Virus record (IMG/VR): IMGVR_UViG_3300045988_159685
Direction: 5' to 3' (one strand)
DNA length: 64,000 bases
Origin: a virus
Shown here: piece by piece, positions 20,073 through 63,061 of the stretch
How positions within the stretch are numbered: position 1 is the stretch's first letter
Layout: each line of letters starts with the position of its first letter
Translations under genes and position numbers: made by a program
Notes under the pieces: model-generated
Seen by the model: only the letters and a program-made list of their open reading frames with translations
The model's database searches: none
What the model was told of the DNA's origin: nothing

Positions 20073-20074
20073 AA

Positions 20075-20719: not shown

Positions 20720-20795
20720 TGGTGCGACTTATGGGGCTTGAACCCATGACCTCCGCATTAAAAGTGCGTTGCTCTACTAACTGAGCTAAAGCCGC
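20720..20795 (-). tRNA. tRNA-Lys(UUU), copy 2, CCA encoded
   Basis: GCGGCTT-TA-GCTC-AGTTAGTA-GAGC-A-ACGCA-CTTTTAA-TGCGG-AGGTC-ATGGG-TTCAAGC-CCCAT-AAGTCGC-A-CCA. Confidence 0.85.
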
Positions 20796-20888
20796 AAGCG
20801 CAGGCATCACACTACATTCCCATATGGTGGGATAAGCACTGTACCTGCTATGCCAATTTTCTTTTTGTGTAGCATTGGCAAACTACAC

Positions 20889-20975
20889 TGGTGCCGCTGA
20901 CGAGACTTGAACTCGTAAGGATTTTACTCCGAGGGTTTTTAAGACCCTTGTGTATGCCTATTCCACCACAGCGGC
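20889..20975 (-). tRNA. tRNA-Leu(UAA), long variable arm, CCA encoded
   Basis: GCCGCTG...AGGGT-CTTAAAA-ACCCT-CGGAGTAAAATCCTT-ACGAG-TTCAAGT-CTCGT-CAGCGGC-A-CCA. Confidence 0.85.
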
Positions 20976-21085
20976 TTGTCTTGCCCACAACCCACAGAAG
21001 GCAAGTAATGTACGGCTCATCCGTACTTCCCTACGTATTCAGCGACTGATGCCACCGATGCGCGTCTAAGGACTGCGACGTCCTT

Positions 21086-21160
21086 TGGTGACTCGTGCAG
21101 GATTCAAACCTACGACTCCGCTCTGAGAAAGCGGTATCTTAATCACTTGACCAACGAGCC
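21086..21160 (-). tRNA. tRNA-Glu(CUC), copy C, CCA encoded
   Basis: GGCTCGT-TG-GTCAAGTGATTAAGAT-A-CCGCT-TTCTCAG-AGCGG-AGTC-GTAGG-TTTGAAT-CCTGC-ACGAGTC-A-CCA. Confidence 0.85.
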
Positions 21161-24603: not shown

Positions 24604-24632
24604 TTGACATTTAGCCAAAAATGGTGTATAAT
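24604..24632 (+). promoter_or_regulatory. consensus sigma-A/sigma-70 promoter
   Basis: TTGACA-17 nt-TATAAT, ~50 nt upstream of the integrase ATG. Confidence 0.75.
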
Positions 24633-24684: not shown

Positions 24685-25473
24685 ATGAGACATTACAAAA
24701 TCAAGCACGCCCAGCAGGTATTCAGTGGTTCGACCGCCCCAAAACTTAAGTGCAACGTTATCGACATTGGCGACGCTGTAAAACCAAAGCGACCCGAAAT
24801 TGAGAAGCGTCCACGCAACAATTCACCGTACACCTCACATGGCAAACCCAAGGCAACCCCTGGCGATCCAATTCGAGACATGGCGGATATTCAAAAGGCA
24901 AAAGAGTTCTTGCTCAACAACGGTAAGACTAGACGCATCAGACTTCGTAACTACATGTTCTTCACCCTTGGCATTTCAACGGGACTCCGTGGTGGCGACT
25001 TAGTTAAAATCAAGATTGGCGATGTGATTACTGAGGGCGGTAGATTTAAAAGCTATATCAGCTTGTTCGAGGAAAAGACCTCTAAACACAACAATCCAAA
25101 GCTTAATTCATCATGCCGTGAAGCAATCAAGACATATCTCGACTACATCGGCGACTACTCCCTTGAAGACTATCTGTTCAAATCCGAGAAAGGCGGTTGT
25201 CTTGACCAATCACAAATCTATAGAATCATTCATTCGCTTCAAACCGACCTTGGGCTACCATACCACTTGAGCGCACATAGCCTCAGAAAGACCTTTGGCT
25301 ACTGGACAATAAAGATGCACCCCGACGATTCAAGAGCTCTTGTGACACTCCAGAGAATGTTAAATCACGATTCACCCGAGACTACACTGATTTACTGCGG
25401 AATAACTCAAGACGACAAAGACGCATTCTACGATGACATGGATACACTGTTCGATGAGGCTACAACCATATAA
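24685..25473 (+). CDS. tyrosine recombinase / integrase 1
   Basis: TGLRGGDL (Arg), SAHSLRKTF (HxxR), LNHDSPETTLIY (His..Tyr); SD AAGGAG. Confidence 0.85.
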   Translation: MRHYKIKHAQQVFSGSTAPKLKCNVIDIGDAVKPKRPEIEKRPRNNSPYTSHGKPKATPGDPIRDMADIQKAKEFLLNNGKTRRIRLRNYMFFTLGISTGLRGGDLVKIKIGDVITEGGRFKSYISLFEEKTSKHNNPKLNSSCREAIKTYLDYIGDYSLEDYLFKSEKGGCLDQSQIYRIIHSLQTDLGLPYHLSAHSLRKTFGYWTIKMHPDDSRALVTLQRMLNHDSPETTLIYCGITQDDKDAFYDDMDTLFDEATTI

Positions 25474-26044: not shown

Positions 26045-28768
26045 ATGGCATTAAACAAATTATACTATGTGTACGGACTTGATACTGCGTGCCTTTATAC
26101 ACCAGAGGAAAGTGCTATTGAACAAAAAATTATCAAGGCACGTTGCCTTCGAGCTACGCTCAAAGACAGAATTGCCAAACAAAAGATAACCCCTTGTCTT
26201 TGTAAAGGTAAAAAAACTATAGCAAACAAAGACAACAAAGCCCCATACGTTGGAAAACATCAGAAGCGTCTGCGTTTTCTCAACGATTACATAGCCAGTC
26301 ATAAAGCATTACTTAAGCAGGAGCTTGCCAAAAATGTATCACTCACACGAACCGTGATACCTGACAAGCTCAATATACGTCGCCAGATTTCAATATTTGG
26401 CTCTTCCCTTACAAGATATTTCAACCTAAAGGAAAGAGAGCTTAATGAAGAAATCGTGATTGTAAAAGTTTACTTCTTCGATGTCGCCAAGAGCATTGTG
26501 AAGAACGGCTTTTACATGAATGGTCACAAATACGTTTTCTTCTCAAGTAGTGCGGGGCAAATCAGAACCAAAAAGCTCGTGGCCGTTCGTGAAGATTTAC
26601 TCAACAAGTATTGGAACGCATTGACGGCAGGCTTGACAATTGAAAAGATTAATGAGCAAGGCGGCATGAATGTAAATAAATTTCTTGCCTACCTTGCTCT
26701 TTGTAATTCAGCTACTGATTTATGGTGTGACTTCAACATTGACGAGTGTATTGTAGTTGACGACTTTGAAACGCTTGTGCATGGTACGGTTGACTTTATA
26801 GACGATAAGACCTATAGGATTGAAAGACAAGAAATGAATATACCGATCACGCACACCGATGGCTGTGGAATGATACTTCCAGAACTGAGTACAAAAAATT
26901 TCATGACAAGATTGCCATGGGTCAAAGGTCTGCTAGCAAGTTTTGACTTTGTGAAGTTTATCAAGGATAATAATTGCGACCCCGTGATTACTGACGTCTA
27001 CGGCGATAAGCATAATATCCTTGAGGAAAATATCAAAATCATATTTACCAAGAGTCAGTTCAAAATGTGGAAATATTATTCAAACTGGGGTGAATATAAA
27101 AACAACTTCAAGAAATATGGAAGCACCGCAGGCAAGTGTAACATAGAAGAAGGATATATCCCATATGCAACGATCAACTACCAAATGATACAGACACTAA
27201 TTGATACCACTGACAATGAGATAGCCGCACTTGCTCGTAAGAGCATGAACGATATTCGCAATCTCGCAACCGATAAAGCAACAATGCTCAAGGTTTTCGG
27301 AGCTACAAGCTACAACAAAAATATGAACGGCTTTCAAAAATGTCTTAAGTTATATCCCGAGCTTTTATCAGACCCATATTCTCGTGCCGCCCTTAAAGAC
27401 ATCAAACATAGCCTTGAGACAGATCAGTGGGCGGCCAAATTCAAAACAAGCGGTAAATACACGTTTGTTGTTCCAGACCTTTATGCGTTCTGTGAATATT
27501 TATTCTTACATATATCAAATCCTAAAGGACTTTTAAGCAACGGTGAAGTAAGTTGCAAACTGTTCAAAGATAATATTGAGCTTGATTGTTTACGTTCGCC
27601 GCACCTCTACATCGAACATGCCATAAGAACAAATCGTCATGTTGACAGTTGGTTTAATACAGATGCAATCTATACAAGTTGTGCCGACTGTATATCGAAA
27701 GTTTTGCAGTTCGACAACGACGGTGATAAACTATTGGTGATTCCAGATGAAACACTAATAAACCTTGCTAAACGAAACTTGCAAAAGTATGACATAGTAC
27801 CGCTCTTCTATAACATGGCTAAGGCGGGGGCAAAAGAACTTACTCCCGATAGCCTGTATGATGGATTAATATGTGCCTACACTGGTGGCAATATTGGCGA
27901 AATAAGCAACGCCATTACCAAGGTTTGGAATAGCGGAGTAATCGACCAAGAAAAAATCAATGTTGTTAAATGGCTTTGTATGGAAAATAACTTCGTCATA
28001 GACTACGCCAAGACCTTGTATAAACCCGTTCGTCCTGATTGGGTAAACGAAATTATTTCTAAGCACGTCAAGAGCAGAGTTCCACATTTCTTTCAATATG
28101 CTAAAGGCAAAGAAACCAATCAAGTAGAAGAAAGAGGTTTAAACACGGTTGACAGAATTAAGTCGTTGACCCCTATACAAAAGCTTAACTTTAATTTTAA
28201 GAACGACAATGTTGGAAAGTTTGATTATAGATTTCTGCTAAAAAACAAAGAAATTGAAGTCGATGAGAATGTGCTTCAACGCTTTAGGGATATATCAAGC
28301 AATCTAAGGTTTTGTGACTCAGATGGAACGGCACTTAACTACCAAGCCGTATACGATCAAGCGAAAGAAGAAATGCTTATGCTCGGTCATAACATTGACG
28401 ATGTTGTAGATATGCTTGTAGAGGATTTATTTCACAGTAGACGTGTTGAAAAGAAAAAAGCATTTTGGGAAATGTTTGGCGAAGTTGTGTACGAACATTT
28501 GTCGAACAATTTATCACAAAATTATATCCAGTGTGCTCACTGTCAGAAAAGATTTTATCGTGAAAACTCGAAACAAATTTACTGCAACAAATGTCAAAAC
28601 AAGAAGTCCATCAAAGCAAATACCAAGATTCTTCAATGTGCAGGTTGCGGCAAAACCATAACAGTAAGTACAAGATGTCATCGTGAAGCCTACTGCCCTG
28701 AGTGTAAAATTCATGCAAGAAATGCGGCAAGACTGAGGGCGTATTATAAAAATAAGCATCTTGTGTAG
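26045..28768 (+). CDS. candidate single-subunit two-barrel (YonO-like) RNA polymerase with C-terminal zinc ribbons
   Basis: LRSPHLYIEHA (R517), then QFDNDGDKLLV 40 aa later (nt 27713..27727). This mirrors beta-prime NRAPTLHRLGIQAF...NADFDGD. N-terminal FFSSSAGQIRTKK. C-terminal CAHCQK..CNKCQ and CAGCGK..CPECK. Confidence 0.6.
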   Translation: MALNKLYYVYGLDTACLYTPEESAIEQKIIKARCLRATLKDRIAKQKITPCLCKGKKTIANKDNKAPYVGKHQKRLRFLNDYIASHKALLKQELAKNVSLTRTVIPDKLNIRRQISIFGSSLTRYFNLKERELNEEIVIVKVYFFDVAKSIVKNGFYMNGHKYVFFSSSAGQIRTKKLVAVREDLLNKYWNALTAGLTIEKINEQGGMNVNKFLAYLALCNSATDLWCDFNIDECIVVDDFETLVHGTVDFIDDKTYRIERQEMNIPITHTDGCGMILPELSTKNFMTRLPWVKGLLASFDFVKFIKDNNCDPVITDVYGDKHNILEENIKIIFTKSQFKMWKYYSNWGEYKNNFKKYGSTAGKCNIEEGYIPYATINYQMIQTLIDTTDNEIAALARKSMNDIRNLATDKATMLKVFGATSYNKNMNGFQKCLKLYPELLSDPYSRAALKDIKHSLETDQWAAKFKTSGKYTFVVPDLYAFCEYLFLHISNPKGLLSNGEVSCKLFKDNIELDCLRSPHLYIEHAIRTNRHVDSWFNTDAIYTSCADCISKVLQFDNDGDKLLVIPDETLINLAKRNLQKYDIVPLFYNMAKAGAKELTPDSLYDGLICAYTGGNIGEISNAITKVWNSGVIDQEKINVVKWLCMENNFVIDYAKTLYKPVRPDWVNEIISKHVKSRVPHFFQYAKGKETNQVEERGLNTVDRIKSLTPIQKLNFNFKNDNVGKFDYRFLLKNKEIEVDENVLQRFRDISSNLRFCDSDGTALNYQAVYDQAKEEMLMLGHNIDDVVDMLVEDLFHSRRVEKKKAFWEMFGEVVYEHLSNNLSQNYIQCAHCQKRFYRENSKQIYCNKCQNKKSIKANTKILQCAGCGKTITVSTRCHREAYCPECKIHARNAARLRAYYKNKHLV

Positions 28769-30866: not shown

Positions 30867-30942
30867 TGCGGAGTAGAGAAAAGGTATCTCGCTTGTTTCA
30901 TAGGCAAGAGATTATTGGTTCGAGTCCAATCTCACGCAACCA
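30867..30942 (+). tRNA. tRNA-Met(CAU)-like; acceptor stem has a bulged A (possible pseudogene or attP core)
   Basis: TGCGGAG-TA-GAGA-AAAGGTA-TCTC-G-CTTGT-TTCATAG-GCAAG-AGATT-ATTGG-TTCGAGT-CCAAT-CTC(A)CGCA-A-CCA. Confidence 0.5.
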
Positions 30943-44110: not shown

Positions 44111-44437
44111 TTGCCTAAGACCAAATACCTTAATGAATGTAGGTTGTGTGGAACGCACTACCCTGCCTGTAGCTATTGCGATAGCACCAAAGAATCAAAT
44201 AGTTGGCGCAAGGTCGCTTGTTGCTGGGGACATTATCTTGCGCTTCAACCGATGATTAAATACGACCAAAAGTCGTTATCAAAAGAAGAGGCGAAAGAGG
44301 AAATAAACAGTGTTATTAACCTTTATGGTAAATTTGAAGTATCAAGCACCATGAAGAAATTGTATGACGACATCATGTGTGATGAAGCAAAGCCTGCAAT
44401 AAAGAAAAAGCAGAAAATAATAAATGCAAATAAATAA
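44111..44437 (+). CDS. Cys-rich (zinc-ribbon-like) small protein, paralogue of 44488..44862
   Basis: CRLCGTHYPACSYCDSTKESNSWRKVACCWGHY; TTG start after AAGGTAAGGTG. Confidence 0.5.
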   Translation: MPKTKYLNECRLCGTHYPACSYCDSTKESNSWRKVACCWGHYLALQPMIKYDQKSLSKEEAKEEINSVINLYGKFEVSSTMKKLYDDIMCDEAKPAIKKKQKIINANK

Positions 44438-44487: not shown

Positions 44488-44862
44488 ATGAAAGCTAATC
44501 ATATTTGCAAATATAGCAAATGTAATTTGGGCAACAATGGACAACCAAAACAATATTATGCCTGTGACTATTGCGATCGAATTAATTCTTGGAAATCCAT
44601 AGCGTGTTGTAAAGAACACTTTGATTTATATATAGAGGAAGAACTCGAGCGTAAATCTATGCTGAATAAAATCAATATGTTGCCAAAGCGTATCGACATG
44701 AGTGATGACGAAATAAAGGAGCTTTATAATATTCCAGCCGACGTTGTACTTGAAAAGACCAACCAAGAACTTCAATATTATAAAGACAAATATGGCATTG
44801 ACAATATTAACGAGGTTGTTGACAAAATAAACGACGAATTAAATAAGGAGGGTAGGTTATAA
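44488..44862 (+). CDS. Cys-rich (zinc-ribbon-like) small protein, paralogue of 44111..44437
   Basis: CKYSKCN...YACDYCDRINSWKSIACCKEHF. Confidence 0.5.
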   Translation: MKANHICKYSKCNLGNNGQPKQYYACDYCDRINSWKSIACCKEHFDLYIEEELERKSMLNKINMLPKRIDMSDDEIKELYNIPADVVLEKTNQELQYYKDKYGIDNINEVVDKINDELNKEGRL

Positions 44863-45581: not shown

Positions 45582-48500
45582 ATGGCAGGATATATAGGCG
45601 ACGTAAATATTAGGGTCAATGCCGACCTTAATACTAAGGATATGGAAAGGGTCTTGAAAGATTTCACCCCTACCATTGAAATAGAGCCCAAGGCAGATAA
45701 GTTAAAGAAATCACTTGAAAATGAATTAACCAAAGCTTTTGCAAAAGTTAAAGACCTAAAAGACGAATTTGATAATTCTACTTTTAAAGCAGACAAAACC
45801 AATTACAACTTTTCGCAGTTCTTTGATACCTTTAATAGCAGTCAAATTTATGGTAAGGGTAACAAAGATAAAATACAGAACAGGCTTAACTACTATATAA
45901 AGAAAGCAAATGAAATGCACGATGTTGCTCAAAGGCTTTCTAATAGCAAACTCGAGTTTGACACCTCTTTATCGTCACTTGGTTTAAGTTATAGTGACAT
46001 TGGGCTATCTGAAGATCAACAGCAGTGGTTAAAATCCGTTGAAAAATCTTACGAGACTGCGGCACAAAAAGCGCATAAAGTAATAAATGGAGTTATATCT
46101 CGATATAACAAAGAACATCCTGATGATAGCTTGCAGATAAATCCATTAAATGCGAACTTCGGCGATGTATCAAAACTATATACAACAAGTTTACAAACGT
46201 CTATAAAAACAGCATTTAAAAGAATTAATGCTACGGGATTAGATCCAAGTAAACTTAGTACAAAAGATATAGACTTACAAACCAAGAGACTATCTGATGT
46301 TATTCCGCTAATGCAGACACTTAACAAATTCTCCAAAAAAGATATGGTTAAGTATAGATTTGATGGGGATACAGATAAAAGTGTTGTTACCATTGCCCGT
46401 GTAAAAGAACTATTAAAAGACTTTGAGTATTATTGGAAAGAAGCAACGGTTTCTCAAAAAGAGCAAGTCAAAGATAAACAGTTAAGCAAATCTGAAGAAA
46501 AAGAAGTTTCTAATGAGGTTTATGTTGAACAGCTTGAAAAGCGTGTATCTGAATTAAAGCAGGAAAACTTAAAGCTTGAAAATGACAAAAAGAGGTTTGC
46601 GGCAAAAAAAGAAGATACTGGTGGCAAATCATCTGATGATAATAAAAGCCTCAAATTAGAAAATGAAAAATTAAAAAAAGAAAATTCTGAATTGTCTGAG
46701 TTTATGGCTAACATACAAGATAAACAACAAGACCCAGGTGATGATTCTGGCAACGGCAGTCCCTCAGAGGGTGGCGAAGTTAGCGAGGGAGGCGTATCAC
46801 TTTCAAGGTTTGAGGCAATCAAAGGGCTGCTCAAATCCCGTGACATTTCTTTAAACAACAAAAAGAAACAAGTTGAAGTTTTAAACAAGAAAATTAAAGA
46901 GCTTGAAAAAAAAGCCAAGTCTAGCGGCAAAGCTACGCTAAAAGATAGCGACGGCAACACTGGTATATCTGGAGTTGATGGCGAAAATTCTGGCGATAAA
47001 ACAGACGAGGAAAGCACAAAACTAAAAGCCAATCTCGAGGCTCTTAAGAGACAATATGAAAAGTCAAAATCAGATTATGAGAACAACAAAAAGCTTTCCG
47101 AAGAGCTTAAAGGCTTAATTGATAAAGCCGAACAATCACAACAAGGTGGCTCGGGCAATATCTCAAAAGAAGCCTTAGAACAGTTCAAGACTGAGATTGA
47201 AAAAGTATGTTCTTCAATTAAAATAGGCGAATTCGATTACGCTGAAGCTTTAGAAAAACTTAGGCAAGCATTAAAAAATGAAGCAGTAGATATTAATGTC
47301 GGCAACTTGAAAACTGCAAGTAAACCAACAGCCGATTCTGCTTCAAGCCCGCAAAAGAGAGTTACAAGAAAACCGTCGGCTAAAAGCGATAAATCAGATA
47401 ATACCACTGAGGATGACCAATATTGGAAAGAAAAGTTTAAAGCCAATATTGAAGAACGCACAAGTGAACAATCTCCACAGGAACTGAAAGACTACTTCAA
47501 GGCCGTGTCTCAAATATCACAAGAAATTGATAAGTCGATGAAGTCAATCAATAGCACAGCTGATAGCTTGATAAAAAAATCTGGTACAAAATCACAGCAA
47601 TCACAAAGTAAGAACTTGGGTTTATCTAGTGAATATTCGGCAATACAATCTCAGGCGGCTAGCATTCAAGAGCAGATTGAAAGTATAAAGCAAGAACTGT
47701 TAAATCCTGATGCTGACACTAACTCAATAACATTCTTCAAAAATATAGACGAACAAGTTAAAGAGCTTTATGCAGACTTAGAAGTTATTCAAGATCAATA
47801 TAATGATACTACTAAGAAATTCGACGAATTAAATAATGCTTATAAAACCGATACAGCGGCACAACGAATTAAGAAGAAAGCTTCTACGTTATTGAATCAA
47901 TATGTATCGTTTAAAGATATAAATAGTAACGCCTTCAAACAGAATGATGCTTTGTCAGCACAATGGGACGAATGGTATAACAAGCTTAAAAATCCAGATT
48001 TGCTTGATGCGAAAGAAATTGATAAAGCCGATGCAAAGCTCAAGGAAATGCGTGCTACCGTAAAAGATCTAGGAATTGGTGGTAAAACAGCTGGCGAATT
48101 GATTTCTAATATGTTCAAAAAGTACGGCGGCTGGGCAATCGTTACTAGGTCAATGGTATATGTAAAATCTGTACTGAGAGATATATACCAAGCAACCAAA
48201 GATGTAGATACCTCAATGGTCAATCTTAAAAAGGTTAGTAACGAAACGGCGGCATCATATGATGCGTTTCTAACAAATGCGGCAAAAAAGTCAAAAGAAC
48301 TTGGTGTTTCAATAAGTGACTTGGTGGATTCGACTTCTGAGTTCTCAAGACTCGGCTATAACCTCAAAGACGCAACCAAGCTCGGCGAACTTGCAACAAT
48401 GTATTCCAATGTTGCCGAAGATTTAAGTGTAACCGACGCCGCCTCTTCAATCATTTCGACAATGAAGGCGTATGATATTGCCGCAGACGATGCACAAGAA

Positions 48501-49322
48501 ATCGTAGATAAGTTTAACTATGTAGGCAACAACTTTGCCATTTCTTCCACTGGACTTGGTGACAGCTTACAACGTTCTGCTTCTGCTTTGGTTGCCGCAG
48601 GAAACAGCCTTGACGAAACCATCGCACTTACAACGGCGGGCAATGCTATTGTTCAAGACCCTGAAAAAATGGGCACTGTTCTTAAGACGGCTTCGGCTAG
48701 ATTAAGAGGAGCAACAGCCGAACTTGAGGAAATGGGCGAAGAAACAGACGATGTAGCAAACGGCACAGCAAAGCTACGTCAGGAGATACTTGCTCTTTCT
48801 GGCGTTGACATCATGAAGAATGATAATACCTTTAAAGGCACATATCAAATTCTTGACGAGATATCGAAAGTATATGGCAGCCTTTCAGACGTAAATCAGG
48901 CGGCACTGCTTGAACAAATTGGTGGCAAAAACGGCATTAACGTAATCGCCGCAGTATTATCCAATTTTGACGAAGCAAGAGAAGTCATGAGTACCATTGG
49001 TGGTTCCAAGGGTTCGGCTTCTGAAGAAATGGAAAAATCACTTGACTCTATAACAGGTAAGCTTGGAAAACTTAGTGCTATATTCCAAGATATATCCACA
49101 AAGGCGTTAGAGTCAGACACAGTTAAATCGTTCTTAGATATTCTTATCGGTATAGGTAATGCAATATCTAAGCTTATACCTAGCCTTAATACTGTGCTTA
49201 AAATTGGCGGAGCAATTGGTGCGGGAGCATTAGGTGCAAAAGGTATTAATATAGGTGCGGGTGAACCCATAAAACACAGGGTTCCACTGAGTATGCCCGC
49301 AAGCATAATGGTAATACCATAA
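45582..49322 (+). CDS. tape measure protein, proximal part (contains a TP901-type core region)
   Basis: 1246 aa, coiled-coil rich. Core FNYVGNNFAISSTGLGDSLQRSASALVAAGNSLDETIALTTAGNAIVQDPEKMGTVLKTASARLRG. Ends in a Gly/Ala hydrophobic segment. Confidence 0.8.
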   Translation: MAGYIGDVNIRVNADLNTKDMERVLKDFTPTIEIEPKADKLKKSLENELTKAFAKVKDLKDEFDNSTFKADKTNYNFSQFFDTFNSSQIYGKGNKDKIQNRLNYYIKKANEMHDVAQRLSNSKLEFDTSLSSLGLSYSDIGLSEDQQQWLKSVEKSYETAAQKAHKVINGVISRYNKEHPDDSLQINPLNANFGDVSKLYTTSLQTSIKTAFKRINATGLDPSKLSTKDIDLQTKRLSDVIPLMQTLNKFSKKDMVKYRFDGDTDKSVVTIARVKELLKDFEYYWKEATVSQKEQVKDKQLSKSEEKEVSNEVYVEQLEKRVSELKQENLKLENDKKRFAAKKEDTGGKSSDDNKSLKLENEKLKKENSELSEFMANIQDKQQDPGDDSGNGSPSEGGEVSEGGVSLSRFEAIKGLLKSRDISLNNKKKQVEVLNKKIKELEKKAKSSGKATLKDSDGNTGISGVDGENSGDKTDEESTKLKANLEALKRQYEKSKSDYENNKKLSEELKGLIDKAEQSQQGGSGNISKEALEQFKTEIEKVCSSIKIGEFDYAEALEKLRQALKNEAVDINVGNLKTASKPTADSASSPQKRVTRKPSAKSDKSDNTTEDDQYWKEKFKANIEERTSEQSPQELKDYFKAVSQISQEIDKSMKSINSTADSLIKKSGTKSQQSQSKNLGLSSEYSAIQSQAASIQEQIESIKQELLNPDADTNSITFFKNIDEQVKELYADLEVIQDQYNDTTKKFDELNNAYKTDTAAQRIKKKASTLLNQYVSFKDINSNAFKQNDALSAQWDEWYNKLKNPDLLDAKEIDKADAKLKEMRATVKDLGIGGKTAGELISNMFKKYGGWAIVTRSMVYVKSVLRDIYQATKDVDTSMVNLKKVSNETAASYDAFLTNAAKKSKELGVSISDLVDSTSEFSRLGYNLKDATKLGELATMYSNVAEDLSVTDAASSIISTMKAYDIAADDAQEIVDKFNYVGNNFAISSTGLGDSLQRSASALVAAGNSLDETIALTTAGNAIVQDPEKMGTVLKTASARLRGATAELEEMGEETDDVANGTAKLRQEILALSGVDIMKNDNTFKGTYQILDEISKVYGSLSDVNQAALLEQIGGKNGINVIAAVLSNFDEAREVMSTIGGSKGSASEEMEKSLDSITGKLGKLSAIFQDISTKALESDTVKSFLDILIGIGNAISKLIPSLNTVLKIGGAIGAGALGAKGINIGAGEPIKHRVPLSMPASIMVIP

Positions 49323-49618
49323 TCGAGGTATTATTATTATGACAGGCAAAAAAGTATAAATTGACTACTTAGTAGTAACGGGTTTGATAATTCCCGTTCG
49401 GGGATGGTAATATTCAATTCTATCACACTTTTTTGAATATGAGAGTATCCGCATCCAAACCGATCGGCGTAAGTTTGTCGCATAATACATAATCGGCTTA
49501 ACGATCGGCAGGTTCAGAGACTATAATTGCTTATTGGTGTTCTGCGATAGTGAACACTGGTTATTGGATAGTCCACGGTGTAGTTGTCGGATAGACGGCA
49601 ATAAAAATTATAAAACTG

Positions 49619-49647
49619 TTGACTTCTGTAATATTATGTGATATAAT
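49619..49647 (+). promoter_or_regulatory. near-consensus sigma-A promoter with extended -10
   Basis: TTGACT-17 nt-(TGa)TATAAT. Confidence 0.75.
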
Positions 49648-49677
49648 GGAATAAAAATATTATAGGAGTTGTTAATT

Positions 49678-49863
49678 ATGTCTAAAGAAAATAACAAAGA
49701 AAATCAAAATAAGAATATCAACGAGAGCGTTTCACATGAACCAATAGTGGAAATCAATGTTAGAAGGAATTATTCGTATGTTCCAATCGACAGCGATATT
49801 AGCGAAAGACCACCTATTCCTACTGTTGATATTGATAAGAATAAAAAGGAGAATGACGGTTGA
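49678..49863 (+). CDS. small hydrophilic protein (61 aa)
   Basis: ATG after GGAG; MSKENNKENQNKNINESV... Confidence 0.45.
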   Translation: MSKENNKENQNKNINESVSHEPIVEINVRRNYSYVPIDSDISERPPIPTVDIDKNKKENDG

Positions 49864-50525
49864 CCGAAATTATTTCATACTTACCAAATATAATTATTTA
49901 TCTAGTCTTGGGCTTTGTTTTTATTAAAGTCTTTAGATTTGTTTATATAGAAGAAAGCCCAAATGATAGTCAACATATACTTACCGAATCTCTCATATAT
50001 GGTTTTATTCTCCAAAATATCTACTCGGCTTTTCCAATTAGTATTAACACTTATATTGACATAATAGGAATGGTTTTGTCTACAGTAATAATAGCATATT
50101 TTCTTGCTAAATTTATATATAGTAAACTATTTAGCAAAATACTTGCTAAATTAAAAATACAACAAACGCCGATTAAAGATTTTTGGATTGATATAACACA
50201 TTCAAAAGAGCGAACATATATAACCGTTTATGATAAAGAGTTCGATCGAGTTATAAATGGAAGATTTGCTAGAGCTGAAACATTTAATAAAAGACCACTC
50301 ATACAGCTATCGGAATATATTATAAAAAATACACGGGGCGATATAATATTCGATATGTCTCTTAACACTGCCGACACTATTGTTATTGATACGTCTAAAT
50401 ACCCCGAAATCATGTTATCACATCCACAACCAAAAGATAAAAAGAAATCTGAAGAATCACAGTCTAAACACAACCCAATAAAGTCAATATTAAACAAAAT
50501 AAAAACTAAATTTCATCATGACTGA
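49860..50525 (+). CDS. integral membrane protein (about 3 TM) with Lys-rich C-terminus
   Basis: TTG start 8 nt after AAGGAG. IISYLPNIIIYLVLGFVFIKVF, LIYGFILQNIYSAFPI, IIGMVLSTVIIAYFLAKFIY. Confidence 0.55.
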   Translation: MTEIISYLPNIIIYLVLGFVFIKVFRFVYIEESPNDSQHILTESLIYGFILQNIYSAFPISINTYIDIIGMVLSTVIIAYFLAKFIYSKLFSKILAKLKIQQTPIKDFWIDITHSKERTYITVYDKEFDRVINGRFARAETFNKRPLIQLSEYIIKNTRGDIIFDMSLNTADTIVIDTSKYPEIMLSHPQPKDKKKSEESQSKHNPIKSILNKIKTKFHHD

Positions 50526-50553
50526 AAAAGCTCCGAGTTTCCTCGGAGCTTTT
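50526..50553. terminator. bidirectional terminator between convergent genes
   Basis: AAAAGCTCCGAG-TTTC-CTCGGAGCTTTT. Confidence 0.8.
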
Positions 50554-50554
50554 G

Positions 50555-51160
50555 TTATAGAAAGAGTTTTATTTTCCAAATGGATATATCGTTTAATCGT
50601 TTATATCCGTCGTCTTTTAATTGCTTGTTAAGGGCAAGCTTTACATATGGCATATCTTCGGATTCGCATATATGTGATGCAATCGTATAATCAATATCTT
50701 TATCTACGGCTTCGTCATTGTATGAGCAATCAAATTCTGCTATATTAATTTGATGCTTTAACAAATCACAATGAGACAGTTTGTCCAAAGTGCCGTAATA
50801 ACTACATCTTATATTGGGGTCGATCTCCTCTTCGTCAATGTCCTTACTATTAAGCGTTCGGGCATTTACCGTAAGATACTTTCCAACTCGCAGGTTGATA
50901 TCAACATTGATACGCTTTTCTCCATCGTCGAATGTAATATCTTTTCTAAATGCACTAACATTTGAAATGTCCACTTCTTTGTCGAGGTCTTTTTCAATCT
51001 TCTGAATAAGAAGTAATACAAATCGTTCATCATCACTTAGAATTACCTTCTTAAGTTGAGGCTTAAAAAATACTAACGAAGTAATCGAAGCTATGATAAG
51101 ACAAAATATTATAATGAGCACAATAAACAATTTTTTATGTTTTAAAAACAATCTTTTCAT
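50555..51160 (-). CDS. N-terminally membrane-anchored protein, paralogue of 51181..51750
   Basis: MKRLFLKHKKLFIVLIIIFCLIIASITSLVFF...; C-terminus DISIWKIKLFL; ATG after GGTGAGG. Confidence 0.6.
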   Translation of the reverse strand: MKRLFLKHKKLFIVLIIIFCLIIASITSLVFFKPQLKKVILSDDERFVLLLIQKIEKDLDKEVDISNVSAFRKDITFDDGEKRINVDINLRVGKYLTVNARTLNSKDIDEEEIDPNIRCSYYGTLDKLSHCDLLKHQINIAEFDCSYNDEAVDKDIDYTIASHICESEDMPYVKLALNKQLKDDGYKRLNDISIWKIKLFL

Positions 51161-51180
51161 TTTTACCTCACCTATCAGCA

Positions 51181-51750
51181 TCAGGAAAATAACTTAATTT
51201 TCCAAAGGGAGAAATCTGTTATTTCCTCGCAATCATCATCAAGACGACGTTTGACACCACTTTTTACATGTTCATCAATATTGTCAACTTGGGCATAGCC
51301 GACTTCATCACCATTTATATCTTTCTTATTTGGTAAATCGTACTGCTCTATGATATCTTGAGAACCCCAATAAAAATGACCAACATAAAGAGAAAAACTA
51401 CCATTATAAATATCTTCTATGGCCTGTGATTCAGAAATACTTACATGTCGTATGAAAGAAATTTCTAATCCGTCATCTGTAATGATATACAAATATGTTC
51501 GAGAGTTCAACCAGTCATCATTTGATTTTTCTGATTTTGTTTCAAGACATTTAATATCTTGAATAGATATATCTTTATCAGTTTCTTCCTTAACTGTGGC
51601 TACACAGTTGATTATAAACTTTTCATTATCATTCAAGATATAACTTGCTATTTGTTTTTTAAACACCATAAAAGTAATAATCAGTAAAATTATTAGACCT
51701 ACTATTAATAACAAAACAACTTTTATCTTTCGTAACTTTGCGTTCTTCAT
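51181..51750 (-). CDS. N-terminally membrane-anchored protein, paralogue of 50555..51160
   Basis: MKNAKLRKIKVVLLLIVGLIILLIITFMVF...; C-terminus DFSLWKIKLFS. Confidence 0.6.
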   Translation of the reverse strand: MKNAKLRKIKVVLLLIVGLIILLIITFMVFKKQIASYILNDNEKFIINCVATVKEETDKDISIQDIKCLETKSEKSNDDWLNSRTYLYIITDDGLEISFIRHVSISESQAIEDIYNGSFSLYVGHFYWGSQDIIEQYDLPNKKDINGDEVGYAQVDNIDEHVKSGVKRRLDDDCEEITDFSLWKIKLFS

Positions 51751-51783
51751 AAGTATTGCCCCTATCTGTTTTTTTATATTAAG

Positions 51784-51812
51784 ATTATATCACAGATTTT
51801 ACCACTTGTCAA
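51784..51812 (-). promoter_or_regulatory. consensus sigma-A promoter with extended -10
   Basis: Minus strand TTGACA-17 nt-(TGa)TATAAT, 34 nt upstream of ATG 51750. Confidence 0.8.
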
Positions 51813-51891
51813 TAGATTTACACCGATACTCAAAAAAATAAAGTCTATTCCAAGTGATATTAAGGATAATCTTTCTGGGTTAAAATCACAA

Positions 51892-54800
51892 TTGTCGCTG
51901 TTTACCACAGAAGAAGCTGAACAGCAATTGAACGATTTTATTGATAAAGTCAAAGTTGGCGGCATGAGTGTCAAAGATTATTTCAATAATCCCGTCAATA
52001 GTGGAAAAACAATTTTAAAGGGTTATGTGCGTGAAGTAGATGAAGCCTCTATGAGTGTAGAAGGTTTCACTCGTTACGGAAAAGAACTGACGAGTCAATT
52101 TGATAAAATGAATACCAAGGGTGGCATTGCCTCACTCATTTTTAAAGACATAGGTTCTATGGCTCTCAAAGCCTTACCAACATTAATCGTTACTGGTATT
52201 GGGGTTGCCATTGATTATTTTGTCAATAAAGCCGAACGAGCAAAAGAAAAAGCCGATGAACTTAGTGAAGAATTAAATAATTCATTAAGTAGCTACAATG
52301 ACAGTTTGTCACAGGTATCTGGGTATGAAAAGGAATTTAACAAGCTTGCTAAAGGTGTTGATAACTTTGGAAATAATCTTTCATTGACCAATGACGAATA
52401 TGACCGTTACAAAGACCTGTCAAACGACATCGCAAAAATCAATCCTAGTTTAATAAAAGGATACGACGACGAAGGCAATGCTATCATAAACAAAAATAAC
52501 GCCATAAGAGATACTATCAGCTTATTAAAAGAACAGCGAAAATTAGATATACTAAAAATGTTATCAGAAGATAACATAGAGGCTGTATCTGACGGATTAG
52601 ATGCTAAGATTTCTGATACAAGAAAAGAAATGAACAGTCTGGCAACAAGATTTATTAAATATCCAGATAACATAAAAAGTGCAATTGAGAATTTCGACAC
52701 AATAGCTGATGGTTTAGGTGACAATTTTTCTAACGAATATAGTGAGATATTAGGAGCCTTTGACAATTACAACAAAGTCGGCGACAAATATAAATTTAAA
52801 ACCTACTATGAAAATCAAGATGAAGTTCATAACCTTGTACAAAAACTACTTAGCTACAAAACTGATAATGAAAGCTTGTCAAAATCACTTGAACAGTATC
52901 AAAAAGAGTTGTCAGATTCTTACGACCAATTGCAAAAAGCATTAAACAACACAGATAATGTCAACCTCTACAAGCAAATTGACAGTGAAATGCAAAGTTA
53001 TACAAAAACGTATGATACATATTTGCAGGCATATCTTACTACTTTGGACGGATATGATGAACTTACAAGTGGCGAGCAGAACATTCTTTCCTCGTTAGTG
53101 TCAAACTTTGAATTAGATGTAGAAAGTAATACCAAAGACTTTGACGAGCAATATGCCGACGAAGTGCAAAAGATCAATTCATTCTATGCTAATTTGAAAA
53201 ATGGAGTAGATAATCATGGCGTACCGCTTTCTGTTTCTTTGGATATACTAACAAATTTGGATACAACACAAACCGTTTCAGAATATGAAAAGCAAATGGA
53301 AACTGCACTAAAAAATATTGCTAATTCCGACTTTGCAAAAAACCAAGGTCTTTCAATCGACGATATCAAAGTCATGCTTGGTTTCTCATTTGAGACAAAC
53401 GATAACGAGATAGAGGATGGGCTTACAAACAAGATTGAGAATATTGCCACTCGTGTTGTGAATCGGATACCGTCGTTGGCTGGCAACCAAAATGGTCAAG
53501 CAATTATTGAAGGCTTGCTTAAAAATCTTACCCCAGATAACATTGACACTTTAATGGATACCAGCCTTGACAAAATAAATTCATGGCAAGATGTTCTCGA
53601 TCTCTTAAATGCAAAAACCACATTTAGCCTTGCTGACTACTCCGAGGATGTTGACAACGTTCAAAGCAAAATTGCCGCACTTGCTTCTGCGTATAAGGAA
53701 ATTCAAGACGGCACTTTTGAAGTTGGTAGTAGTGGATGGGAACTCGTTAAAAGTTATGGGGAATTTCTTCCATACCTTGACGACACAAATGGCGGCTTTG
53801 AAGAACTCGGTAAGAAAATCAAAGAAGCAATGGGTATTGCTCCAAACGACCTGATTAAGCAACTTTCTCAACTTAAAGGTTTGAGTGACGCCGATCAAAA
53901 ATCTGTAAATAATCTTATCAAAGTCCTCTATAAAATGAAAGATGTTAGCCTTTCAAATCTTACTTCAGACGGATTACTGACCGCCGAGAAGAATCAAGTA
54001 CAAGCAATAATTGATAAGATAAATGATAAGAAAGACAAAGAACAGGAATACCTCGATACGCTTCAAGAAGAGGAAGATACTTTAAATGATATCATTGACA
54101 AATATCAGACCGCTGGTGATACTGCTATTGATTATATTGAAAAAGAAATCAGTAGTCTTGAGGATTCTCGTGACGATGTAGAGTCATATTACGACGACCT
54201 TATTGATAAACTCAAAGAGGAAAATGACGAACGTGATAGAGCCATTGAGTTGCAGGAAAAGCAAGACGCTGTAGCTAATGCAAAAAAGAAAAAGGTTGCT
54301 ATCTATAGCGAAGCAAGTAGCTGGCATTTAGAAACCAACTCCGACGAGGTTGAAAAGGCACAACAGGAACTTGATTCACTACAAAACGAAATAGCTATTG
54401 ACAATCTTGAAAAAGAGAAAGAGGCTGCTATGCAACCTTATACCGATCAAATTGAGGCATTTGAAAAGTATAAGCAAGCATGGAGCGATGCTATGAGTGC
54501 CTATACAAACAACCAGAATGAAATGATTGCGCAACAAATTTTAGGTATAGATTGGCAGGGTAAACTTCACAATCAGGATATCGGTATTCTTAACAAATAT
54601 CAAACTGATTATAGCGGTTATCAAACTAAACTCAAAGATAATGTTCAAAAAGAGAAAGAGATTATTCAAAACCGCATTGACCAATATGCAAAAGAAGCAG
54701 ATGAGTGGGAGAAGTATCTCAAACAATTTGATACATTCGTTTCCGATTTATCTGACCAAGACGTTAAATACTTTGAAGAACTTAAACTCAAAACACTTAA

Positions 54801-55470
54801 TGAAAAGAGTACATACCAAGAGCGACTTGATGCTTTGCGTGAATTTAAAGCCGATTATATTCAGCTATCAGATGACCTGGCACAATATGAGGGCACCTCT
54901 ATAAAGAAAGCTTTGTCTGGTAGCGGCGTATATGCTGTCGAAAAAGATAACGCAATTCTTGGTGCATACACCACCAAAAAGGAAGCCGACAAAGCCATGT
55001 ATAAGTTTGCGGGGCAAATGATAAGTGAAAAGGTTTCAATGCTCGGTGGCTTGAGTAATATCAGTGTAACCAAGCTTGCGGAACTACAAAAGGAGATACG
55101 CTCAAAATTCAAGGTAAAGCAGTATGCGACGGGTGGAGTTAATAGCTACACGGGAACGGCTATGCTACACGGAACACCATATAAGTCTGAGGTAATCTTT
55201 AATTCTTCAGACGCCAAGAAACTCTATGACATTGTACACAATACTCGCAATGTTGCAAGCGTTGTTGGTAAGACTATAGGTGACAATCTTGTAAGTGGTA
55301 CGCAGGCGGCTGGATCAATGTTCACAACAAATGATACCACTAATGGTGATACCACAATTACATTTAGAATTGGCGAAATTCATACTACCGACGGCACAAC
55401 ATTCTTACAGCAAATGAATGACTATTTGAAGCAAGCAGACCGTGACCGCATGATAGGTAGAAACAGATAA
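51892..55470 (+). CDS. tape-measure-like protein, distal part; start codon uncertain
   Basis: 1192 aa. Hydrophobic GGIASLIFKDIGSMALKALPTLIVTGIGVAIDYFV, then a long coiled coil. Frame open from 51736. No SD before TTG 51892 or ATG 51964. Confidence 0.6.
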   Translation: MSLFTTEEAEQQLNDFIDKVKVGGMSVKDYFNNPVNSGKTILKGYVREVDEASMSVEGFTRYGKELTSQFDKMNTKGGIASLIFKDIGSMALKALPTLIVTGIGVAIDYFVNKAERAKEKADELSEELNNSLSSYNDSLSQVSGYEKEFNKLAKGVDNFGNNLSLTNDEYDRYKDLSNDIAKINPSLIKGYDDEGNAIINKNNAIRDTISLLKEQRKLDILKMLSEDNIEAVSDGLDAKISDTRKEMNSLATRFIKYPDNIKSAIENFDTIADGLGDNFSNEYSEILGAFDNYNKVGDKYKFKTYYENQDEVHNLVQKLLSYKTDNESLSKSLEQYQKELSDSYDQLQKALNNTDNVNLYKQIDSEMQSYTKTYDTYLQAYLTTLDGYDELTSGEQNILSSLVSNFELDVESNTKDFDEQYADEVQKINSFYANLKNGVDNHGVPLSVSLDILTNLDTTQTVSEYEKQMETALKNIANSDFAKNQGLSIDDIKVMLGFSFETNDNEIEDGLTNKIENIATRVVNRIPSLAGNQNGQAIIEGLLKNLTPDNIDTLMDTSLDKINSWQDVLDLLNAKTTFSLADYSEDVDNVQSKIAALASAYKEIQDGTFEVGSSGWELVKSYGEFLPYLDDTNGGFEELGKKIKEAMGIAPNDLIKQLSQLKGLSDADQKSVNNLIKVLYKMKDVSLSNLTSDGLLTAEKNQVQAIIDKINDKKDKEQEYLDTLQEEEDTLNDIIDKYQTAGDTAIDYIEKEISSLEDSRDDVESYYDDLIDKLKEENDERDRAIELQEKQDAVANAKKKKVAIYSEASSWHLETNSDEVEKAQQELDSLQNEIAIDNLEKEKEAAMQPYTDQIEAFEKYKQAWSDAMSAYTNNQNEMIAQQILGIDWQGKLHNQDIGILNKYQTDYSGYQTKLKDNVQKEKEIIQNRIDQYAKEADEWEKYLKQFDTFVSDLSDQDVKYFEELKLKTLNEKSTYQERLDALREFKADYIQLSDDLAQYEGTSIKKALSGSGVYAVEKDNAILGAYTTKKEADKAMYKFAGQMISEKVSMLGGLSNISVTKLAELQKEIRSKFKVKQYATGGVNSYTGTAMLHGTPYKSEVIFNSSDAKKLYDIVHNTRNVASVVGKTIGDNLVSGTQAAGSMFTTNDTTNGDTTITFRIGEIHTTDGTTFLQQMNDYLKQADRDRMIGRNR

Positions 55471-61526: not shown

Positions 61527-61540
61527 AGGCGGTGTACAGA

Positions 61541-63061
61541 ATGTCTAAAATGAATAAGCTGATTAAGGAAAGTCAAGATAATAAAAAAACACTTGGTTAT
61601 ACCTATGGAACAGTTAAAAGCTACGACTCTACAAATTGTACAGCCATTGTTTCGCTATTAGAGTATAATGGTGCTGAAAAATCTTTTCTGAATAAATCAG
61701 GTGAGATTTTAAGCATGGGAGACAGTGTGTGGATCTATTTCCGTGGTGGTGGTATAAACGCTGGCTACATTGCTATTAGGAATGGCAAACCTATACCTCT
61801 AGGAAGTCAAAATTCTAGCGTAGGACGATTTGTTGAATACGTTGATAGTGGTGGTAGTAGACACATCTCAGAAAAGTTTAATTATTATGGCAGTTCTTAT
61901 TTTTATACTATAGCCCCTGATGGAACAGAACAGATTACTATTTATCTTGAAAATATTGCCCATGGCGATTACAACCATCTTGAAGGTCAAGCAAACCATT
62001 GTTACGAATATAGTTATGACAGCAATAATTATATTGATTTTTCAGAAATGAAAACTAACAGTATGTTACATATGTTACCCTATGCTCGTGGAAATAGCAG
62101 TTTAAATTCCTTAACAGGCTTTAATAATACTAGCGTTGGTGGATTTTCTAATCACGTCAGTGGTATGTGGAATACGTCTGAATATAGTGTGGCGGTTGAG
62201 TGTAGCGGTGCAAAAAATACTGTTTTCAATTCTCGTGATACATATGTTAATGGTATGAATAATATGCTAGAGGGTGTAGCTGATAGTATTGTAGTTGGTA
62301 CATTGAATACTGTTAAGGGTGATAAAACTAAAGACCAAATGGCAAAATGTAATGCCGTGTTTGGATATGATAACGAAATTATAAATTATGATGATTGTTT
62401 CGTTGCAGGTTCACATAATCGTGCCACAGCGGATAACCAAACTGTTATAGGTGTCAATGCAAGACAAACTTATAAAAGCTCGGAAAACGCTGATATACTA
62501 TTTAATATAGGAAATGGTTCTGCACTTGAAAATTCTGCAATGCAAGTAGATTTTTCTGGCAATGTTTATGCTGGCGGTGCGTACAAAACTATTGGTGCTG
62601 ACTATGCCGAATATTTTGAATGGCTTGACGGAAATGTTGATAATCAAGATAGGATCGGATTATTCGTTACGCTTGACGGTGATAAAATCAAGCTTGCAAA
62701 TAAAGACGATTATATCCTTGGTGTTATATCAGCCAACCCATCTATTGTTGGTAACTCTGCTGAATTAGATTGGCATGATAAATATAAAACAGATGTTTAT
62801 GGACGGTTGATTTATGATGAGTCACACAATCCTATAGTCAGTGAAAACTATAACGATACGCTTGAATATGTTCCTCGTGGGGCTCGAAAAGAGTATAGCA
62901 AAGTTGGCTTGTTAGGACAGTTAGTAGTTCAAGATGATGGAACGTGCGAGGTCAACGGATATTGTACGGCTAGTGTGAATGGCGTGGCAACCAAGTCAGA
63001 TAGTGGTTATAGGGTTATCAAACGTATTGATGAAACACATATAAAAATAATACTTAAATAG
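61541..63061 (+). CDS. tail fibre/spike protein with possible C-terminal autoproteolytic chaperone domain
   Basis: Beta-helix-like N/G-rich repeats. The GADYAEYFEW motif resembles intramolecular-chaperone (peptidase G2-type) junctions. Confidence 0.45.
   Translation: MSKMNKLIKESQDNKKTLGYTYGTVKSYDSTNCTAIVSLLEYNGAEKSFLNKSGEILSMGDSVWIYFRGGGINAGYIAIRNGKPIPLGSQNSSVGRFVEYVDSGGSRHISEKFNYYGSSYFYTIAPDGTEQITIYLENIAHGDYNHLEGQANHCYEYSYDSNNYIDFSEMKTNSMLHMLPYARGNSSLNSLTGFNNTSVGGFSNHVSGMWNTSEYSVAVECSGAKNTVFNSRDTYVNGMNNMLEGVADSIVVGTLNTVKGDKTKDQMAKCNAVFGYDNEIINYDDCFVAGSHNRATADNQTVIGVNARQTYKSSENADILFNIGNGSALENSAMQVDFSGNVYAGGAYKTIGADYAEYFEWLDGNVDNQDRIGLFVTLDGDKIKLANKDDYILGVISANPSIVGNSAELDWHDKYKTDVYGRLIYDESHNPIVSENYNDTLEYVPRGARKEYSKVGLLGQLVVQDDGTCEVNGYCTASVNGVATKSDSGYRVIKRIDETHIKIILK

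Follow-up and report, generated by a model that had tools for sequence, protein, structure and literature searches.

A promoter-driven membrane-protein cassette as cargo of a predicted group I intron in the tape-measure gene of an SPbeta-like gut prophage

The DNA analysed here comprises 64,000 nucleotides of IMG/VR virus record IMGVR_UViG_3300045988_159685, and this whole stretch is called the window in the following. Its tail module contains a cassette of four genes between two large open reading frames (ORFs). With a probability of about 0.6, this cassette forms the cargo carried by a group I intron of 2563 nt (49263-51825), which interrupts the tape-measure protein (TMP) gene of an SPbeta-like gut prophage; the anatomy is read from the sequence, from which expression in the lysogen, read-through and splicing are proposed. 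Apparently, the intron serves as a safe site for accessory genes that would be expressed by the lysogen. The evidence for the splice sites, consisting of the helices P1 and P10, the terminal G and the reading frame, is strong, and the predicted fold of the ribozyme core is plausible but incomplete. Group I introns in TMP genes and phage introns bearing ORFs are known, and the unexpected part is the bidirectional and promoter-driven cargo, which does not consist of endonuclease genes.

The phage is SPbeta-like with a host among the human-gut Clostridia, given as Ruminococcus sp. by one source. The 221-aa protein of the cassette is present in 1893 blocks of an assembly collection, and because it sits on human-gut contigs, one of which is longer than 1 Mb, the element is regarded as a prophage. 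A megablast search of the region 45.5-55.6 kb against GenBank phages gave no match, and the species-representative genomes searched contained no close relative. Relatives are labelled L001-L109 (IMG/VR loci and others) and the window phage is denoted W.

A tape-measure gene in two predicted exons

The ORFs flanking the cassette, 45582-49322 (1246 aa) and 51892-55470 (1192 aa), are by their sequences the two halves of one TMP. The TMP profile phrog_4211, which has 2625 positions, matches the first ORF with its positions 574-948 and the second with its positions 961-1449, and continuous TMP homologues are encoded by C. difficile phage LIBA2945 and the IMG/VR relatives L036-38, L040, and L104 (2451-2700 aa). 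The exons are predicted as follows:

45582-49262, plus strand: TMP exon 1, 1227 codons, ending ...GGT GCG GGT (..GAG); match to Pfam PhageMin_Tail with E 7.5e-24; 5' splice site taken from the scan for helix P1 (see below)
51826-55470, plus strand: TMP exon 2, 1214 codons and the stop codon; the listed ORF 51892-55470 is the part after the first TTG

When spliced in silico, the TMP has 2441 aa in phase 0 without an internal stop and with the junction ...GINIGAG/ILKKIKS... (the slash denotes the splice site). The predicted ligated exon junction is ...AATATAGGTGCGGGT/ATACTCAAAAAAATAAAG..., and the 33-mer spanning it reads AATATAGGTGCGGGTATACTCAAAAAAATAAAG. The spliced product matches phrog_4211 in one stretch (574-1450) across the junction with an E-value of 1e-103, compared to 2e-75 and 3.5e-23 for the separate parts. 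In dozens of divergent copies each exon keeps an open frame of 3.6 kb, and the last 20 codons of the first ORF would be read-through into the intron.

By its sequence, exon 2 could not be translated independently. Upstream of the first ATG, GTG, or TTG the frame stays open, and in L018, L019, and L020 the open frame reaches 71, 130, and 76 codons, respectively, upstream of any start codon. By eye, this upstream stretch is partly homologous to L016. In addition, neither candidate start of the second ORF in the window is preceded by a Shine-Dalgarno site, which most of the neighbouring genes checked have.

Predicted splice sites and internal guide sequence

In the scan for splice sites every phase-0 U near the end of the first ORF was combined with every G in the next 160 nt. 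The top solution is alike in the window lineage and the L016 lineage and consists of one contiguous guide, built from the P10 strand, a G, and the strand of helix P1:

49263-51825, plus strand: predicted group I intron, 2563 nt, phase 0, with helix P1, P10, and terminal G; the core is in front and the 3' part holds the cargo
49288-49301, plus strand: internal guide sequence, with UGAGUAU (49288-94) as P10 strand and GCCCGCA (49295-301) as strand of helix P1
51825, plus strand: terminal G (omega G) at the 3' splice site, followed by AUA(C/U)U at all true junctions

Helix P1 pairs the exon sequence UGCGGGU (49256-62) with GCCCGCA over 7 bp and places the wobble pair U49262.G49295 at the 5' splice site, and helix P10 joins UGAGUAU to AUACUCA (51826-32) of exon 2, again over 7 bp. 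In L016, helix P1 is formed by GGGU and GCCC, and P10 by AAGUUAAUAU and AUAUUAACUU over 10 bp, with two compensated differences to the window. The terminal G followed by AUA(C/U)U was found at 26 of the 34 distinct 3' junction sequences, in both lineages, and the other eight are mis-picks of the heuristic that lie off the true junction. 3' splice sites further upstream are excluded because an in-frame TAG directly precedes the junction in L020, and because W and L002, which have the same exon 1, differ by a 1-nt indel just upstream of the 3' splice site.

The motif AUGCCC is common to lineages without other non-coding similarity and is therefore the predicted guide sequence itself. A 5' splice site at agU/AUGCCC (49292), which had been derived from the conservation of this motif, was dropped since the scan makes AUGCCC the guide. 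The helix P1 that cmscan placed in L016 was also rejected, because it would lead to phase 2 and to a stop codon after ligation.

The predicted ribozyme core

The core was modelled manually and the model was checked pair by pair. It contains the following elements:

49263-49601, plus strand: ribozyme core, folding z-score -3.07
49263-68/49279-84, plus strand: L1 hairpin
49304-18/49327-41, plus strand: P2
49345-49 (GGCAA) with 49527-31 (UUGCU), plus strand: P3, the best of two candidates, ambiguous
49397-402/49448-53, plus strand: P4, 5 of 6 pairs
49410-17/49433-40, plus strand: P5
49455-66/49502-12, plus strand: P6/P6a
49519-23/49569-73, plus strand: P7, 5 of 5 paired
49534-42/49552-60, plus strand: P8, 9 of 9 paired
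49584-89/49596-601, plus strand: P9, 6 of 6 paired

The R element GUUCAGAGACUA (49512-23) together with the S element GAUAGUC (49567-73) forms a pattern that occurs once in the window and in none of 100 shuffled sequences. R and S are conserved where all other non-coding sequence has diverged, and the order of guide sequence, Q, R, and S is identical in all relatives. Twelve sequence variants of the window lineage contain six substitutions within the core helices, each of which keeps the pairing. In L016, the full Rfam model Intron_gpI (RF00028) matches right after the first TMP ORF with 33.8 bits (E 3e-6), which is under the gathering score of 50.

Some of the L016-type introns (L018 at about 11465-11860, L019, L055, L085, and L087) have about 370 extra nucleotides in the P6 loop, so that the distance from Q to R is 416 instead of 47 nt. 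This extra sequence is a second cargo site in the same ribozyme.

Three other kinds of removable element were considered and rejected. GUGCG at the end of the exon resembles a group II intron, but there is no domain V and no Rfam match. Motifs of a split intein were not seen by eye. Excision at the DNA level would cause packaged genomes to lose the cargo, and no recombinase was recognised in the cassette.

Promoters, terminator, and genes of the cassette

Both promoters, the terminator, and all four genes are located between the ribozyme core and the 3' splice site, that is, in the 3' part of the predicted intron:

49619-49647, plus strand: promoter P1, TTGACT-17-TGaTATAAT, score 11/12, for the plus-strand cargo unit; starts 18 nt past helix P9
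49678-49863, plus strand: 61-aa hydrophilic ORF with the Shine-Dalgarno site AGGAG; its stop overlaps the start of the next gene
49860-50525, plus strand: 221-aa protein with three predicted transmembrane (TM) helices, of a distant DUF6338-like family
50526-50553, both strands: bidirectional intrinsic terminator common to both convergent units, 12-bp hairpin, -21.2 kcal/mol, z-score -5.45
50555-51160, minus strand: WKIKLF-family paralog 1, 201 aa, with a single N-terminal TM anchor and the C-terminal domain predicted outside
51181-51750, minus strand: WKIKLF-family paralog 2, 189 aa, N-terminally anchored; AlphaFold2 model with a predicted local distance difference test (pLDDT) of 86 and a predicted template modelling score (pTM) of 0.77
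51812-51784, minus strand: promoter P2, TTGACA-17-TGaTATAAT, score 12/12, for the minus-strand cargo unit; ends 13 nt short of the 3' splice site

The two promoters are the best TG-extended sites within 44-58 kb. Elsewhere in the whole window there is only one 12/12 sigma-A site (24604-24632, plus strand), and it lies directly upstream of a short tyrosine-recombinase-family gene (24685-25473, plus strand, 262 aa) that belongs to the Phage_integrase family. The stability of the terminator was matched by none of 200 shuffled sequences and T-runs follow the hairpin on both strands. A simple consensus scan does not list it because its A/T flanks lengthen the stem. All four genes have Shine-Dalgarno sites, and G+C falls to 0.26-0.33 inside the cassette. 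The two minus-strand proteins are 23% identical (BLASTP E = 8e-8) and end with SIWKIKLF and SLWKIKLF.

The original prediction, which was made by a model from the letters of this DNA, had described two near-identical sigma-A promoters facing each other, a bidirectional terminator between the units, and a hydrophilic 61-aa peptide, a 3-TM protein, and two anchored paralogs with the shared WKIKLF C-terminus as products, and it had assigned the only other promoter of this quality to the integrase. All of this was found again. It had further proposed the cassette as a candidate for lysogenic conversion or superinfection exclusion and compared it with morons next to TMP genes, such as HK97 gp15. 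In part this agrees with our data: the unit has its own promoters and terminator, encodes membrane proteins, lies in a prophage, and varies in presence among close, nearly identical relatives. Thus, as far as its sequence tells, the anatomy of the cassette is that of a moron or lysogenic-conversion unit, which presumably is expressed in the lysogen. The position has to be corrected, since the cassette does not adjoin the TMP gene but sits inside it, within the predicted group I intron.

The two promoters form a 37-nt inverted repeat that is 73% complementary. As a helix in the pre-mRNA (49611-49647 with 51784-51820, 11 bp + 8 bp) this repeat could close the cargo loop, with 10 nt between P9 and the helix and 5-10 nt between the helix and the terminal G, which would bring this G to within about 15 nt of P9. 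This candidate was rejected, as 25 of 200 shuffled sequences paired as well, and the pairing is inherent to any two facing consensus promoters.

The cargo proteins

The 221-aa protein is predicted to consist of three TM helices followed by a beta domain (AlphaFold2 pLDDT 65.7, and about 80 in the beta domain). The beta domain resembles the Sm/LSm fold (Foldseek E about 2e-3, TM-score 0.6-0.75), and an Sm-like fold after TM3 is an arrangement as in MscS-type channels. The domain is probably cytoplasmic because TM3 is followed by a Lys-rich segment, according to the positive-inside rule. The Pfam family MS_channel_1st_1 matches with 20.1 bits, below its cut-off of 22, and does so on TM1 and not on the helix beside the beta domain. 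The family collected with HMMER contains 561 clusters, and 8 of 45 sampled members match PF19865 (DUF6338), the best with E 4.4e-8; the protein itself gives no match to PF19865 at E <= 0.1. A function of DUF6338 was not found in the literature.

In the WKIKLF paralogs, an N-terminus with positive charge and a single TM helix are joined to a confidently predicted alpha/beta domain (pLDDT 86), and their ends are conserved while the middle is hypervariable. The family of paralog 2 comprises 32 clusters only, all in the lineage of the window phage. Foldseek found no match to the paralog fold in PDB or BFVD (best E 0.1 and 0.017, TM-score below 0.3). That the cargo proteins do not resemble any family that can be named, as had been predicted, is borne out by the absence of matches at threshold in Pfam, PHROG, NCBIfam, and PADLOC. 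Likeness in sequence or fold to known superinfection-exclusion proteins of the Ltp, Sie2009, or HK97 gp15 type was also not detected with these resources and Foldseek.

Related introns and the variation of their cargo

In the L016 lineage (L016-L021 and about 55 further IMG/VR loci) the TMP is 37-43% identical to that of the window and is split in the same way. In L016, the core is followed in turn by an 11/12 promoter, a small ORF, the gene of a 203-aa 3-TM protein, a terminator, and, beside the 3' splice site, a gene on the minus strand. The 3-TM proteins of the two lineages align with an hhalign probability of 83.5% (E 8e-6). The small ORF before the 3-TM gene in the L016 lineage (C9) is similar to the 61-aa ORF in size and composition, and no sequence similarity was shown.

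A census of the cargo covered about 70 related introns. The pair of small ORF and 3-TM gene is found in both intron lineages, the WKIKLF paralogs are restricted to the window lineage, and zinc-ribbon proteins occur in the other lineage. A homing endonuclease was not seen in any of these introns. Sporadic cargo includes SocA/Panacea antitoxins accompanied by partner ORFs, a DUF3800 protein, and a retropepsin-like one, and such Panacea, DUF3800, and retropepsin-like cargo of L016-type introns is located at:

L091, 3137-4160
L080, 7915-8631
L079, 8433-9269
L069, 8228-8725

Among prophages that are 95-99% identical elsewhere, the cargo slot diverges sharply from 50621 rightwards. In the window lineage, the number of WKIKLF paralogs per slot ranges from one to three, with at least six types in all, and a 133-aa gene is optional. 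This plus-strand gene (132-133 aa with an N-terminal hydrophobic segment, about 1410-1810 nt after the stop of the TMP N-terminal ORF in L001-L014, e.g. 10874-11275 in L001) lies between the terminator region and the paralogs in most relatives, and is missing in the window, L005, and L008.

The variation does not always end at the splice site. The first about 480 codons of TMP exon 2 (51826-53265 of the window) exist as two alleles with 42-46% protein identity. One allele is present in W, L001, L004, L008, and L028, the other in L002, L003, L011, and L012, and the rest of the TMP is 95-99% identical. The dimorphic block is contiguous with the variable cargo, and between some of the prophages compared the divergence continues into exon 2.

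The pair is also found outside any TMP intron. L024 has an intact TMP of 1552 aa and encodes a 61-aa + 202-aa pair (9746-10687) among its tail genes and on their strand, with its own 11/12 promoter and a terminator-like hairpin, and followed by a zinc-ribbon gene.

A second, unrelated intron lineage of about 1 kb with a distal 3' splice site interrupts the same TMP region. Its cargo is a single minus-strand zinc-ribbon ORF, and it is represented by:

L067, 6946-7951
L103, 6946-7941
L105
L109

Between L067 and L103, P10 covaries and so does a long-range helix that closes the loop (CAUGGUA/UACCAUG versus UGUGGUA/UACCACA). Rfam gave no match on the inserts of L067, L039, L041, and L042, although inspection by eye shows P, R, and S elements in L067. 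More TMP interruptions with R/S-like motifs and other cargo are located in L039 (6994-9350), L041 (6949 onward), and L042 (1660 onward), and the cargo in L039 includes a coiled-coil ORF and a DUF262-looking ORF.

Proposed expression and role of the cargo

How the cassette and the TMP could be expressed from the same DNA is suggested by a polymerase gene, which, as in SPbeta, lies a short way upstream of the genes for packaging and structural proteins:

26045-28768, plus strand: YonO-like single-chain RNA polymerase, 907 aa; phrog_8308 with E 1e-236, Pfam RdRP with E 2.7e-13

In SPbeta, YonO copies the late genes into RNA as one operon with little pausing (PMC5467207). In the lysogen, the host sigma-A RNA polymerase would fire from both facing promoters and stop at the shared terminator, so that host transcription would yield the cargo proteins alone. 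Upon induction, the processive YonO-type polymerase, the presumed late polymerase, would transcribe the late operon through the terminator. The ribozyme would then excise the whole 2.5 kb and restore the TMP message, and the accessory genes would cost the tail gene nothing.

As for its role, the cargo may protect the lysogen at the membrane from incoming phages, i.e. provide superinfection exclusion, which we tentatively favour and which on the sequence data appears possible but somewhat short of probable. It is favoured because the paralogs are outward-facing, diversifying, and arranged in tandem, because defence-type genes occupy this slot in related introns, and because the adjacent TMP segment is dimorphic. 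A further reason is the TMP as a target of exclusion: Ltp reportedly acts on the TMP of the incoming phage. The outward-facing and fast-diversifying WKIKLF paralogs would be the specificity elements, and the small ORF with the DUF6338-like 3-TM protein would be a separate membrane module. It could further be imagined that the TMP group I introns of SPbeta-like gut phages in general are dedicated cargo carriers, whose ribozyme loop is a safe harbour for defence and exclusion genes expressed from the prophage, that the switch of polymerases separates both uses, and that the cargo co-diversifies with the adjacent TMP segment as the part recognised in the incoming phage. This generalisation is doubtful at present.

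Evidence to the contrary and alternative explanations

Several observations speak against an intron with cargo for the lysogen. Rfam does not find a group I intron in the window, neither at the gathering score nor at E <= 10. A covariance model built from 25 L016-type P6-P9 regions has the window as its sole foreign match, with a non-significant E of 0.91. P3 is ambiguous, and two extra hairpins (49364-76 and 49377-98) are present where group I introns normally have only J3/4, the second of which overlaps P4 by 2 nt, and P4 itself contains one mismatch. An intron-less allele with the predicted junction was not found: exact patterns of 20-26 nt had no match, and a 16-mer junction pattern gave chance matches in IMG/VR and metagenomes, none of which was TMP-encoding among the matches listed. 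Splicing over a gap of 2.2 kb, the read-through, and the expression of the cargo in the lysogen all remain proposals. The plus-strand pair is co-oriented with late transcription and could also act late. Finally, no exclusion or defence family was found at threshold with PADLOC, NCBIfam, Pfam, and PHROGs for the four cargo proteins.

The best-surviving alternative is cargo that acts in the lytic cycle. The plus-strand pair would be translated late from the pre-mRNA or the excised intron and the promoters would be secondary; the products could, for example, change the membrane for the timing of lysis, handle the tail or the TMP, or exclude competitors during replication. This would fit the co-orientation of the 61-aa and 221-aa genes with the late operon, the L024 pair with its zinc-ribbon gene inside the row of tail genes on the same strand, and the conservation of the pair across the intron lineages, unlike the remaining cargo. 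However, it is hard to reconcile with the near-consensus sigma-A promoter and the own terminator that accompany the pair in all three contexts. The two minus-strand genes run antisense to late transcription and can be expressed only from a promoter of their own, and the slot also holds genes of the toxin-antitoxin type. A lytic role is improbable to us.

Decidedly improbable, too, is a module for abortive infection or of toxin-antitoxin type, in which the 221-aa protein would be a membrane effector kept in check by the small ORF and the paralogs would be sensors or unrelated surface proteins. The related introns whose slot holds Panacea antitoxin pairs and DUF3800, the translational coupling of the small ORF to the membrane protein, and the weak match to the MscS TM helix with an Sm-like domain after the TM helices point in this direction. 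But nothing shows toxicity, the proteins do not belong to any PADLOC or Pfam defence family, and the MscS match is sub-threshold and covers TM1 instead of the helix beside the beta domain.

It is very unlikely that the intron is a relic in a decaying prophage, with a dead ribozyme and a broken TMP, which survives as carrier of genes beneficial to the lysogen. The ambiguous P3, the extra hairpins, the mismatch in P4, and the missing Rfam match speak for a relic, and a homing endonuclease and intron-less alleles were not found. Against it speak two exons whose frames stay open for 3.6 kb each across dozens of divergent copies, perfect 7-bp helices P1 and P10 in the window, and pairing at six of six core-helix substitutions, and the element is extremely common (the 1893 collection blocks) with an otherwise complete structural module.

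The least probable explanation is a plain moron between two independent tail genes with nothing spliced: both large ORFs are intact, the first has its own stop codon, Rfam has no intron match in the window, and there are phage genes, such as nrdA and gene 43 of T4-like phages, that are split into halves working as subunits, but the second ORF has neither a Shine-Dalgarno site nor a conserved start and its frame is open for 71-130 codons further upstream in L018-L020, helix P1, P10, and the terminal G are present and covary across lineages, R and S are conserved amid diverged non-coding sequence, and the spliced product scores above the separate parts.

Other features of the window

The window encodes eight tRNA genes, seven of which are clustered at 16089-21160 on the minus strand and one of which (30868-30938, plus strand) is located ahead of the packaging genes. 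A homologue of nicotinamide phosphoribosyltransferase (3165-4643, minus strand, phrog_448 with E 1e-155) is an auxiliary gene for NAD salvage. The tube gene and the YomN-like gene are separated by two small Cys-rich ORFs (44111-44437 and 44488-44862, plus strand), and a terminator-like hairpin follows each of these (44444-64 and 44850-76). The genes called in this interval vary among the nearly identical L001-L010 (61, 65, 67, or 124 aa). The tail protein at 61532-63061 (plus strand) contains a Peptidase_G2 domain for intramolecular-chaperone autoproteolysis (E 6e-34).

Significance and comparison with known systems

In the usual view, phage introns are selfish elements whose cargo does not go beyond a homing endonuclease of their own. 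If the cassette is indeed intron cargo, accessory genes expressed by the lysogen, with their own promoters and terminator, would be tolerated within an essential late gene whichever strand they occupy, with splicing avoiding polarity and loss of function, and this would be a new route for the acquisition of morons and defence genes. The finding of "two tape-measure genes" flanking orphan genes, as annotation pipelines give it for a very abundant group of human-gut prophages, would be accounted for as well. For further study, the locus presents a natural cargo-bearing ribozyme of 2.5 kb with a possible polymerase-dependent switch between cargo expression and splicing. In addition, it provides two orphan families of membrane proteins, one with a confident but unmatched fold, and a dimorphic TMP segment for the study of exclusion and escape. 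A phage intron with promoter-driven, bidirectional accessory genes other than endonucleases, i.e. an intron-borne moron, was not found described in the literature.

The hotspots for defence genes in prophages and satellites of the P2/P4 type are fixed slots with conserved flanks and fast-exchanged accessory and defence genes. The slot described here shares the fixed position, the conserved flanks, and the exchange of genes including toxin-antitoxin-like pairs, but it would be the peripheral loop of a ribozyme inside a structural gene, and an established defence system was not recognised in it. Concerning the intron itself, the order of elements is known from T4 nrdD (sunY) and other phage introns, in which the core comes first, the ORF follows downstream in a peripheral loop, and the 3' splice site is distant. 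The predicted intron likewise has its core first, the ORFs downstream, and the 3' splice site far from the core. The ORF in T4 nrdD, however, is a homing endonuclease gene on the sense strand that serves intron mobility, whereas the window has four genes of a membrane-protein cassette, two of them antisense, and no endonuclease.

The closest location is that of the group I introns TMP-IVS1-3 in the TMP genes of prophages of the Bacillus cereus group (Tourasse and Kolsto 2008, PMC2504315). They are also self-splicing group I introns in a prophage TMP gene with a patchy distribution, and some copies lack a complete homing endonuclease gene. As far as that paper describes them, they are compact introns with at most a homing endonuclease gene or its remnant (PMC2504315), in contrast to the 2.2 kb of non-endonuclease genes on both strands in the window. 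Compared with this description of TMP-IVS1-3, the cargo of the window intron also differs in having its own promoters and terminator and in varying between nearly identical phages.

The cargo resembles the morons of temperate phages such as HK97 gp15 and Ltp of TP-J34, the latter being described as a superinfection-exclusion lipoprotein (PMC3952083). Like these, the cassette is an autonomous promoter-terminator unit within the late genes that encodes membrane or surface proteins and is variably present, and it could plausibly block superinfection at DNA entry, a step that involves the TMP. The known morons, however, are located between genes, whereas the cassette of the window sits inside an essential gene, where it would be harmless only by means of RNA splicing.

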